The translations under genes were made by a program, and so were the position numbers. A stretch of DNA of 64,000 nt, taken from Oscarella lobularis (Eukaryota). Numbering within the stretch: position 1 is the stretch's first letter; each line of letters starts with the position of its first letter. Where the stretch lies: assembly GCF_947507565.1 (NCBI RefSeq), contig NC_089179.1, positions 926,681 to 990,680 of the forward strand. Reading direction: 5' to 3'. Of this stretch, positions 19,541 through 21,896 are shown in pieces. The notes under the pieces were generated by a model, which saw only the letters and a program-made list of their open reading frames with translations, was not told the DNA's origin and made no database searches.

Positions 19541-20767
19541 CTAACTCTGTGCTGTCTGTGACGTGTCTGCAAATTTGTACGCTGAATGTATGGCAGCAAT
19601 GCCACCTGACAGGTTTTCCCAATTGACTGCCTTGAAACCGGCTTCGCGTATCATCTCAGCAAACGTGTCCTAGTAAGAAACATGTTATATATACTATTGC
19701 ATGAGAATCAGAGTTTTAGACTTGCCTGATCTGGAAAGGCTGCTATACTGTCGACAAGATACCGGTAAGCAGCTTTATCTTCGGCTATGATTTCTCCAAG
19801 AATAGGAATTATTTCAAATGAATAGGTCGTATAGAGCCTGCAATAAAGCAAAAGGTGAGTCTATTGAAGTATACCTCCTAACTGCTGCATCTCGCCTTTG
19901 CAGTAGCGGATTTTTTACGCGACTGAATTCAAGGCACATGAACCGGCCACCAGGTACAAGTACCCTATAGGCTTCTCTGAGAGCCTGCATACCACGTGAG
20001 CACAGCCAAGTAGGAAAAATCCAACTGTGGTGTTGTACCTTTGGTATGTTGGAAACGTTCCTGATTCCAAAGGCAATGGTATACGCATCAAATGAATTGT
20101 CATCCAGCGGTAGGGACTCCGCATTACCTTCAATCCACTTTATAGCTAAAACAAAGTGAATCGACATCAATTTTTGCACGCATTCATTACCTGGGGCATA
20201 TCCCTGTTCAATTTCCCTCCTACGACCAACGGCCAGCATATCTGGATTTAGATCACAAACAGACACTTTGACGTTGCTTAGAGATATTTCCCTTTCGGCT
20301 GCCAACAGATAGCGCAGAAAACGAAACGATATGTCCCCTTTATATAAATCAATCACAACTCGCTCATCGATGTGTTCTCAGAAACCTGTCCCTCCAGCCA
20401 CATCCAACAGTCGCGTCTCGGACGTGGGTGCCAGCCTTTGCACGAAGAGGTCCTTCCATAGGCGGTGAATTCCGCCGCTCATCACGTCGTTCATTACATC
20501 GTATTTATTTGAGACGCGCGTGAAAATATCTTGTACTGGTAGCGAGAACTCGAGCGCAAGTCTGTGATGCACTGACGGTTGTGCTTACCAAATCGAACGT
20601 TCGAAGACGAGCTATTTCTCGACATCATTTGCCTGCTTGGGCACCATCGGAGCCTCTGTAGAGCTCTCATGGCGCACGAAAACGGCGCAAATAGCTCCCC
20701 GTACGGGACTAGACGATGAACCAGGATACGGATAAGACACTTGCTGCCTCCGAAACAGGCAGTTCAT
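19541..20767 (-). CDS. COQ5: COQ5 (2-methoxy-6-polyprenyl-1,4-benzoquinol C-methyltransferase, UbiE family), mitochondrial, multi-exon
   Basis: Presequence [25 protein letters not shown]..; [47 protein letters not shown] (SAM motif); [12 protein letters not shown]; [25 protein letters not shown]; [29 protein letters not shown]; [37 protein letters not shown]; [33 protein letters not shown]. Confidence 0.85.
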
Positions 20768-20775
20768 GCGACTTT
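20757..20775. promoter_or_regulatory. Head-to-head junction of COQ5 (-) and PPTC7 (+); the two start codons overlap within a CATG palindrome
   Basis: In the plus-strand sequence agttCATGcgactt, ATG at 20766-20768 starts the PPTC7 ORF ([19 protein letters not shown]). The reverse-complement ATG at 20765-20767 starts COQ5 (MNCLFRRQQ). Confidence 0.5.
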
Positions 20776-21896
20776 TCCGTACCTTTTTGCTTTGCGTGAG
20801 GCCACACTCGCGTCGCCTTTCAACGAAAATCGTCGTATCTGCGCACGGCGCCGCCTTCAATCCTAGCCAGACTGGCGACGCGACGACGCTGTACGGTCAC
20901 GACGCTTACTTTGTGACGCGAACAGCCGCCTGCACGGCCGCGGGTAAGCAGAAAAAATGCAGCGCCCTCGAAATAATCGTAGGATCACGCCCACAGGCGT
21001 CGCTGATGGGATCGGCAGTTGGGCAAAAGACGGAATCAATCCTTCGGAATTTCCTTCCCTACTCATGACTCGCTGCAGAGAAGCGATTGTGTCGGGTCTC
21101 GTAGCACCCAACGACGTGTTAGAACAGGCCTTTGAATCCATGAAGAACGATTCCCGTCCAGTAGCCGGTAAGTCTCTTCAAGAGCTGTTTGTATAGCAAG
21201 CCACGTATATGACTGGTTCTGTTGTTAGGAAGCAGTACGGCCTGTTTGGCCGTCGTTTCGGGCACCACGTTGCACGCGACGAATCTGGGCGACTCCGGTT
21301 TTGTTGTCGTGAGAAGAGGCAGCATCGTGTCCTCGTCCGCGGCCCAGATGCACGCACTCAACTACCCCTACCAGTTGACAATACTACCGGAGAAAATTCG
21401 CAGTAAGGGCATATCACTTCTGAGGTAAGAGCAGAGAGAGGAGGAGTATATATATAGAGACGCACTACTCTCGAGGCCCCGTTCACTCTTTCGCTAAGCC
21501 TACATGTAGCTTTCTACTATAGTCCCGCTGCTGCGGATTCAAGTTCGTTTCAACTTGAATCCGGTGATATCGTCGTTGTCGCAACCGACGGTCTGTATAA
21601 TAATTTGCATCGTGAGCAAATTGAGAATTACGCGTCTCTCGTAGAGGTATGCTCTTTTAGAAGAATAATATATAGACTACGAGAACGATCGTATTCTCCT
21701 AATCAAGGTTGTCGACGACGATTCCCTAAAACGGTTAGCAAAAATTTTAGTTACTGAAGCAAGGACACTTTCGTTTGACTCGAAATACTTTTCTCCCTTT
21801 GCGGAGGAGTCGACGAGAGTTTATTCGCAAAGATGTCTCGGTGGGAAACCAGACGATGTCACGGTTATAGTGCTGGGCATTGCAATTGACACGTAG
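20766..21896 (+). CDS. PPTC7: PPTC7 / PTC7-type mitochondrial PP2C phosphatase (the CoQ-biosynthesis regulator that dephosphorylates COQ7), multi-exon
   Basis: Presequence [21 protein letters not shown]; GHDAYFVTRTAA; ITPTGVADGIGSWAKDGINPSEFPSLLMTRCREAI (PPTC7 GVADGVGGW..GVDPSQFS); MLGSSTACLAVVSGTTLHATNLGDSGFVVVRRGSIV..QMHALNYPYQLTI; SGDIVVVATDGLYNNL; FSPFAEES..GGKPDDVTVIVLGIAIDT*. Confidence 0.85.

Follow-up and report, generated by a model that had tools for sequence, protein, structure and literature searches.

COQ5 and PPTC7 of the homoscleromorph sponge Oscarella lobularis are very probably an ordinary head-to-head gene pair of a compact genome, with start codons 95 bp apart and a short bidirectional promoter shared between them. 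In the window (the whole 64,000-bp stretch of DNA analysed, to which all coordinates refer), they stand next to each other and diverge, as an earlier note on this DNA had recognized, with COQ5 on the minus strand starting at 20670 and PPTC7 on the plus strand starting at 20766. That note also held that the two start codons share a CATG and have zero spacing. They do not share it: the ATG chosen for COQ5 was in the wrong frame, and 95 bp (20671–20765) lie between the start codons.

Gene Identities and Exon Models

Both genes of the pair are already annotated in RefSeq, where their models are automatic predictions. The coding sequence of COQ5 isoform X2 runs from 20670 to 19541 on the minus strand (exons 20670–20589, 20535–20386, 20337–20191, 20145–20039, 19984–19896, 19837–19726, and 19669–19541; stop codon 19543–19541) and encodes 271 aa, the model translation being identical to XP_065830408. 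Isoform X1, on the same strand, retains an in-frame 45-nt intron (20190–20146) and encodes 286 aa, identical to XP_065830407. The protein matched Pfam PF01209 (ubiE/COQ5 methyltransferase) with residues 26–261 over profile positions 8–233 of 233 (E = 6.8e-87, 291 bits), and the yeast Coq5 structure 4obw with residues 22–260 (E = 4.4e-66). Its best database matches were animal COQ5 (mitochondrial 2-methoxy-6-polyprenyl-1,4-benzoquinol methylase) proteins with 46–61% identity, and the SAM-binding glycine motif of class I methyltransferases (DVAGGTGD) is present across the exon 2/3 junction. These matches identify the predicted product as COQ5, the C-methyltransferase of coenzyme Q (CoQ) synthesis.

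The coding sequence of PPTC7 (protein phosphatase PTC7 homolog) extends from 20766 to 21896 on the plus strand and encodes 285 aa. The five-exon model (20766–20943, 20997–21167, 21229–21424, 21523–21646, and 21708–21896; stop codon 21894–21896) reproduces XP_065830409 exactly, and its introns of 53, 61, 98, and 61 nt are all GT-AG. Pfam matches were to PP2C_2 (PF13672, E = 9e-10), SpoIIE (PF07228, E = 2.1e-07), and PP2C (PF00481, E = 1.4e-06), and the PP2C structure 6ae9 was matched with E = 5.5e-18. The named best matches were PTC7 homologues, namely those of Orchesella and Oratosquilla, fungal "protein phosphatase 2C 7", and Azr1 of S. japonicus; together with the RefSeq name, they argue for a PTC7/PPTC7-type PP2C. 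Both identities, as well as the outer coordinates at the two stop codons, had been given correctly in the earlier note.

The surroundings of the pair are compact. A nitric oxide synthase gene lies tail-to-tail with COQ5 at 14500–19427 on the plus strand (Pfam NO_synthase, Flavodoxin_1, and NAD_binding_1 on ORF segments), its last coding segment ending at 19048 or 19427, which is 113–493 bp from the COQ5 stop. On the other side, a minus-strand gene with multiple TIL (trypsin-inhibitor-like) domains, placed provisionally at 22251–23200, lies tail-to-tail with PPTC7, and its stop codon (22251–22253) is ∼354 bp from that of PPTC7. Introns at the COQ5/PPTC7 locus measure 45–98 nt.

Start Codons of COQ5 and PPTC7

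The start codon of COQ5 was placed at 20668–20670 on the minus strand (gcgccATGa, with G at -3), where both RefSeq isoforms begin (MRALQRLRW...). No earlier ATG follows in this frame on a TGA at 20766–20764, which bars any N-terminal extension of COQ5 up to the CATG. The frame of exon 1 is fixed by the first intron (20536–20588, minus strand), a phase-1 intron of 53 nt (GTAAGC...CAG) that interrupts a Val codon and has a strong GTAAGC donor at 20588. COQ5 of Corticium candelabrum has an intron of matching position and phase (G/gtgaac...ttcag/TT, splitting the Val of VHQVF). An assembly frameshift merging two exon 1 frames found no support, the RefSeq models carrying no low-quality flag, and does not have to be invoked since the conserved intron phase accounts for the frame.

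The 27-residue peptide of COQ5 exon 1 contains six Arg and no Asp or Glu. The earlier note had read both N-termini as mitochondrial presequences, and those of PPTC7 and of COQ5 (MRALQRLRW) are indeed presequence-like in being arginine-rich and devoid of acidic residues; the peptide quoted at the time for COQ5, MNCLFRRQQ, would not belong to that protein. Exon 1 is nevertheless unusual. An N-terminal xFG[FY]..V..EK segment preceding V..VF..VA.KYD.MND, which almost all of the 119 other homologues fetched have in identical or closely similar form, is missing from both O. lobularis isoforms. Conserved as it is, this region is probably non-catalytic, and its absence was not taken to exclude the protein from COQ5. 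An exon 1 without the near-universal motif means that the understanding of the 5′ exon is perhaps not complete. A hidden upstream exon carrying the THFGF motif was sought by a six-frame motif search and by tblastn with the N-termini of the Corticium, human, and E. coli proteins, and none was found near the gene; the sole HFGF in the window, at 47824 on the plus strand, is unrelated. A search of EukProt for a COQ5 orthologue of O. pearsei returned choanoflagellates, an ichthyosporean and others, none of them Oscarella.

For PPTC7, the plus-strand ATG at 20766–20768 is the first to follow an in-frame stop located 10 codons before it, and the N-terminus aligns from residue 3 with the transcript-derived O. 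pearsei orthologue (P0122), which is collinear, of near-equal length and 60% identical. The five-exon model that reproduces the RefSeq protein begins at this ATG, which is the PPTC7 start, as the earlier note had proposed.

A Short Spacer as Putative Bidirectional Promoter

The 95 bp between the start codons (20671–20765) are a putative shared bidirectional core promoter and 5′UTR region. CpG observed/expected is 1.2–1.6 over about 20300–21100, the spacer included, and within the spacer a 6-bp inverted repeat (CTGCCT/AGGCAG) occupies 20744–20749 and 20757–20762. Most likely, the CpG-rich spacer and the flanking first exons would act as one short bidirectional promoter for both genes, whose 5′UTRs may be very short or partly overlapping. 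With the start codons at 20670 and 20766 taken as 5′ ends, the pair falls well within the <1 kb by which head-to-head genes at bidirectional promoters were defined in Amphimedon (PMC4773876). The locus resembles the bidirectional promoters of Amphimedon, human, and Drosophila in the opposite strands of the two genes, in 5′ ends far less than 1 kb apart, in a CpG-enriched inter-gene region and in a compact genome whose introns and intergenic DNA are short; it differs in its spacing, 95 bp from one start codon to the other being close to the lower end of the range. About one third of the genes of Amphimedon queenslandica are at bidirectional promoters, and the arrangement is very common in compact sponge genomes (PMC4773876). 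Exact-protein look-ups in assembled read sets, made with O. lobularis COQ5 X1, COQ5 X2 and PPTC7 and with O. pearsei PPTC7, returned no contigs. The shared promoter, the positions of the transcription start sites (TSSs) and the co-expression of COQ5 and PPTC7 are inferred, and co-regulation is plausible.

With the COQ5 start kept at 20670, one or both TSSs could still lie beyond the ATG of the other gene, giving antisense 5′ ends and leaders whose uORFs, at 20767 for COQ5 (51 codons) and at 20716 for PPTC7 (an out-of-frame plus-strand ATG in the spacer opening 27 codons), would dampen translation. The spacer is a mere 95 bp, the O. pearsei PPTC7 transcript contig has 90 nt 5′ of the ATG (ORF 91–951 in the EukProt header), 549 head-to-head pairs overlap in Amphimedon (PMC4773876), and the weak context of both upstream ATGs would permit leaky scanning. 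However, 5′UTRs usually avoid out-of-frame upstream ATGs overlapping with the main start, which argues for TSSs inside 20717–20765 for PPTC7 and 20671–20766 for COQ5. A COQ5 leader passing 20767 would resemble known overlapping uORFs, its 51-codon ORF terminating 56 nt past the main ATG, yet the context of that ATG is weak and its inclusion in the COQ5 mRNA hypothetical. Leaders that overlap in this way are possible, and we consider them considerably less likely than not to exist.

Adjacency in Other Genomes

No PPTC7 was found closer than 10 kb to COQ5 in Corticium, Branchiostoma, Lingula, Priapulus, Patiria or a chytrid, and no COQ5 near PTC7 in Helobdella or S. japonicus. Conservation of the arrangement, which the earlier note had suggested as a check and whose lack in every relative it would have read as chance adjacency, was thus absent from all eight other genomes compared, among which Corticium is the other homoscleromorph, O. 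lobularis being the only Oscarella in the set. In other animals, COQ5 stands head-to-head with different partners at 63–367 bp. None of the other genomes examined had this pairing of COQ5 with PPTC7, and a literature search retrieved no publication joining COQ5, PPTC7 and bidirectional.

Ptc7/PPTC7 is tied to coenzyme Q synthesis through the dephosphorylation of Coq7, which activates the pathway and is known for the yeast and human proteins only, and the products of COQ5 and PPTC7 both work in mitochondria. The Oscarella pair is similar in joining a PTC7-group PP2C gene and a COQ5 gene, both with presequence-like N-termini, and differs in that the established link, a phosphatase acting on Coq7, is biochemical and not a genomic one. 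To our knowledge, genomic clustering of COQ5 and PPTC7 genes has no precedent.

One explanation would be that COQ5 and the activator of its pathway were brought or kept together in Oscarella by selection, a bidirectional promoter coupling their expression and tuning coenzyme Q synthesis. The mitochondrial location of both products and the established connection through Coq7 speak for it, as does rarity by chance: we estimate that one given pair would be adjacent with a probability of ∼2/N, N being of the order of 10^4 genes, and that ∼100 pairs among ∼15 CoQ genes would give an expectation of ∼0.01–0.02. Bidirectional pairs also generally tend toward co-expression (PMC10887517). Against these points, the pair is adjacent in none of the eight other genomes, the close comparison with Corticium included, it was noticed post hoc among very many possible functional pairings, and the roles of PPTC7 are broader than CoQ. 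Selection for the adjacency consequently appears improbable to us.

Bolder still is a scenario in which a rearrangement in the Oscarella lineage set PPTC7 head-to-head on COQ5 and remodelled COQ5 exon 1, which lost the ancient FGF..EK segment and acquired a new presequence, so that a 95-bp bidirectional promoter and overlapping leaders with mutually antisense upstream ATGs would couple the expression of the enzyme to that of the phosphatase activating the pathway. We give this combination little credence; if true, it would mean that in one lineage of an early-branching animal selection had coupled the genes of a metabolic enzyme and its regulator in the genome.

The CATG and Its Minus-Strand ATG

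The sequence agttCATGcg is present at 20761–20770, as the earlier note reported, with the palindromic CATG at 20765–20768. Its plus-strand ATG is the PPTC7 start and its minus-strand ATG (20767–20765) is an out-of-frame upstream ATG opening an ORF at 20767–20612 (MNCLFRRQQ...VEK, 51 codons, then TAG at 20614–20612). The antisense ATG is a product of the palindrome only and not the COQ5 initiation codon. CATG is its own reverse complement, so that every ATG following a C brings an antisense ATG with it; in the window, 22% of ATGs follow a C. CATG sites from which ORFs of 51 codons or more open both ways number 4 of 180 in the window (20765, 29200, 36822, and 45551), so that a CATG flanked by long ORFs both ways is within chance.

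It is highly improbable that COQ5 is translated from this minus-strand ATG, with a CATG common to both starts and zero spacing. The ATG does exist, its ORF begins with residues that look basic (MNCLFRRQQ), and an exhaustive enumeration of GT/GC...AG introns, with 25 nt as the minimum length, gave 97 theoretical introns that could put it in frame with COQ5 exon 2. However, all of these have poor splice sites and none is annotated; one of the many weak combinations pairs a GCAAGT donor at 20744 and a CAG acceptor at 20633. The ORF does not share the frame of exon 1 and ends before any good donor, its ATG lies in a weak context with C at -3 as against a purine at -3 for the ATG at 20670, and its 51-residue peptide has four acidic residues and no similarity to COQ5. 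Both RefSeq isoforms start instead at 20670, in the frame set by the conserved phase-1 intron. Initiation of COQ5 at a downstream Met behind a spacer, which the earlier note had named as contrary to its reading, is what the gene models give.

Since the start codons are 95 bp apart, neither zero spacing nor the antisense 5′UTR overlap, trans-splicing or internal initiation, one of which the earlier note considered obligatory, is needed. That spliced-leader (SL) trans-splicing determines the 5′ end of either mRNA, or of both, is hardly credible: AG dinucleotides occur just 5′ of both ATGs and one class of sponges, the hexactinellids, has SL trans-splicing (PMC7986045), but a literature search retrieved no report of it in homoscleromorphs, neither an SL sequence nor a polypyrimidine-rich acceptor could be seen, and the mechanism is superfluous with this spacing. 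The term "operon-like" was likewise a misnomer, because genes on opposite strands cannot be polycistronic, and at most a bidirectional promoter would apply. The pair has in common with the SL-resolved operons of nematodes and tunicates only the idea of co-regulated neighbours, those operons yielding one polycistronic transcript from the same strand, whereas COQ5 and PPTC7 lie on opposite strands.

A start codon within the palindrome CATG is invariably accompanied by an antisense ATG, and frame and splice sites should be checked before a shared start is called. As an ordinary head-to-head pair, the locus is of modest value: it offers a candidate case of two products of one mitochondrial pathway that are perhaps co-regulated from a bidirectional promoter of ∼95 bp.

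Gene Identities and Locus

In this DNA of Oscarella lobularis, a homoscleromorph sponge, the spliced model of the minus-strand gene at 19541–20670 was 100% identical over its full length to RefSeq XP_065830408 ([quoted passage not shown] isoform X2, 271 aa) and, in its X1 form, to XP_065830407 (286 aa). The plus-strand gene at 20766–21896 likewise corresponded, 100% full-length, to XP_065830409 ("protein phosphatase PTC7 homolog", 285 aa), and all three identities were re-checked by exact translation of the window models. The methyltransferase matched Pfam PF01209 end to end (E 6.8e-87) and the sequence of the yeast Coq5 crystal structure 4obw (E 4e-66), and is a genuine COQ5. 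The phosphatase had Pfam matches to PP2C_2, SpoIIE and PP2C, its best named matches were PTC7 homologues from animals and fungi, and it was collinear, at 60% identity, with a transcript-derived protein of O. pearsei (286 aa); by sequence, it is assigned to the PTC7/PPTC7 group of PP2C phosphatases. These matches bear out the gene assignments of the earlier note, as well as its outer coordinates, 19541 and 21896, at which the respective stop codons end.

The locus is very compact, with introns of 45–98 nt, and the CpG observed/expected ratio was 1.2–1.6 over ∼20300–21100, centred on the 5′ ends of both genes. A plus-strand nitric oxide synthase gene (∼14500–19427), with NO_synthase oxygenase, flavodoxin and NAD-binding segments, lay tail-to-tail with COQ5; the stop codons of the two are only 113–493 bp apart, so their 3′UTRs would be very short or overlapping. 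On the other side, a minus-strand gene or array with repeated TIL (trypsin-inhibitor-like, cysteine-rich) domains (22251–23200 and beyond) had its stop ∼354 bp from that of PPTC7. The region between them contained a T-run (22068–22078) and a polypyrimidine repeat (22105–22165; ctcctttttctcc variants).

Start Codons and Spacer

It had been proposed that the two start codons share a CATG (20765–20768). The sequence agttCATGcg exists, and PPTC7 does start at its plus-strand ATG (20766): the reading frame is closed by a stop 10 codons upstream, this ATG is the sole Met of exon 1, the RefSeq model begins there, and the O. pearsei orthologue, of near-equal length, aligns from residue 2–3. The minus-strand ATG (20767–20765) is in the wrong frame for COQ5, opening an ORF of 51 codons (MNCLFRRQQ...VEK) that closes at TAG 20614–20612. 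COQ5 exon 1 ends at 20589, followed by a strong donor (G/GTAAGC), and exon 2 runs from 20535 (..ACCAG/TA), the frame across this junction differing from that of ATG 20767. Independent support for this junction comes from the homoscleromorph Corticium candelabrum, whose COQ5 has an intron at the identical site and phase, splitting the Val of VHQVF (G/gtgaac...ttcag/TT). In the COQ5 frame, codon 20766–20764 is TGA and the earliest ATG thereafter is 20670–20668, on the minus strand, which is the predicted COQ5 start. It has the better context (G at −3, against C for ATG 20767), opens a 27-residue exon 1 peptide with six Arg and no acidic residue, and begins both RefSeq isoforms. Full enumeration of GT/GC...AG introns that might splice ATG 20767 into COQ5 gave 97 theoretical introns, every one of them with weak sites and absent from the annotation.

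Thus, the divergent neighbours, the CATG and the PPTC7 start are real and the gene identities stand, but the COQ5 start had been mis-assigned, and the start codons are separated by 95 bp (20671–20765) rather than by zero. Since the supposed zero spacing is refuted, it no longer follows that the 5′UTRs must overlap or that the 5′ ends must be set by trans-splicing or internal initiation. The shared CATG itself is not beyond chance, because CATG is a palindrome, every C-preceded ATG having an antisense ATG; C precedes 22% of the ATGs in the window, and ORFs of at least 51 codons run both ways from 4 of its 180 CATGs (20765, 29200, 36822, and 45551). Directly 5′ of the PPTC7 ATG was a 6-bp inverted repeat, CTGCCT(N7)AGGCAG (20744–20762), which may bind a factor or be fortuitous.

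COQ5 Gene Structure

Of the 119 other COQ5/UbiE homologues retrieved, from bacteria to animals and Corticium included (TTHFGYEQVDEEEKESR), nearly all have the N-terminal segment xFG[FY]..V..EK, exact or as a close variant, which is missing from O. lobularis COQ5. Exon 1 (20589–20670, minus strand) encodes only 27 residues, without similarity to this segment, and no other exon within the window encodes it. Exon 1 may have been remodelled in O. lobularis; a tie to the rearrangement that made the COQ5–PPTC7 pair is speculation.

Two of the six minus-strand COQ5 introns in the RefSeq-identical model have GC donors, at 19838–19895 (GCGAGA at 19895) and 19670–19725 (GCAAGT at 19725); with the nearby GT donor at 19874 used instead, a stretch that is conserved would gain the residues RDAAVRR. 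Isoform X1 keeps the 45-nt intron 3 (20146–20190, minus strand) in frame, adding 15 residues within the methyltransferase domain; this isoform probably reflects intron retention that is minor or non-productive.

Synteny in Other Genomes

Conservation of the adjacency, a check set by the earlier note, was examined in eight other genomes, at the COQ5 locus in six and the PTC7 locus in two, and the pair was present in none. No PPTC7 occurred within 10 kb on either side of COQ5 in Corticium candelabrum (annotation and tblastn), nor was it found near COQ5 in Lingula or a chytrid, and COQ5 was not found near PTC7 in Helobdella or Schizosaccharomyces japonicus. The head-to-head partner of COQ5 was an RH-domain gene in Branchiostoma (367 bp) and a HEAT/DUF4042 gene in Priapulus (63 bp) and Patiria (237 bp). 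COQ5 is commonly half of a divergent pair whose partner varies among genomes; as PPTC7 was never among the partners in the genomes checked, the pairing is, relative to these eight, specific to Oscarella or to O. lobularis.

A dynein-light-chain gene lay directly downstream of COQ5, tail-to-tail, in Branchiostoma and Patiria, and an RRM-protein gene lay near it in Branchiostoma and Lingula. Together with HEAT/DUF4042, these neighbours look like an old bilaterian microsynteny, which is absent from both homoscleromorph loci. In Lingula anatina (L003, the COQ5 comparison locus, 4341–9359), COQ5 is directly preceded, on its own strand, by a second, shorter Ubie_methyltran model (205 aa), which represents either a tandem duplication or one gene split between two models. 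In S. japonicus (L008, the PTC7 locus, 7428–11068), the PTC7 homologue Azr1 was head-to-head with a succinate dehydrogenase flavoprotein gene (516 bp), so that in this distant lineage, too, PTC7 is divergently paired with a mitochondrial enzyme.

Putative Shared Promoter and Meaning of the Pairing

The best-supported reading is that both genes, and their co-expression, would be driven by a single short bidirectional promoter occupying the 95-bp spacer and its surroundings. An out-of-frame plus-strand ATG at 20716, upstream of the PPTC7 start, opens a 27-codon ORF; if within leaders, this ATG and minus-strand ATG 20767 would overlap the main starts, which suggests TSS positions within the spacer and very short 5′UTRs. 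A less probable alternative is overlapping leaders that carry upstream ORFs, a variant kept in play by an O. pearsei PPTC7 transcript contig with 90 nt 5′ of the ATG.

Ptc7/PPTC7 is tied to CoQ synthesis via Coq7, and selected co-regulation could be advanced for the pair, since by our estimate chance adjacency of two among ∼15 CoQ-related genes has an a priori probability of ∼1–2% in a genome of ∼10^4 genes. However, the pair was spotted after the fact amid countless possible functional pairings, PPTC7 has roles broader than CoQ, and the pairing is not conserved, making such selection quite improbable. Human COQ5 and PPTC7 are both on 12q24, ∼10 Mb apart; if the two belonged to one ancestral linkage group, adjacency by random intrachromosomal shuffling would be less improbable. 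The label "operon-like" is unsuitable for genes on opposite strands, and SL trans-splicing, documented within sponges in hexactinellids only (PMC7986045), is not needed.

The head-to-head arrangement is of a kind abundant in compact sponge genomes, about one third of Amphimedon genes being at putative bidirectional promoters, with 549 overlapping head-to-head pairs (PMC4773876). Oscarella genomes are among the smallest in sponges, that of O. pearsei being 57.7 Mb (PMC10280926). Within a compact sponge genome, COQ5–PPTC7 is an ordinary, already annotated head-to-head pair with 95 bp between its two ATGs, and its functional pairing is an unconserved, mildly curious one.
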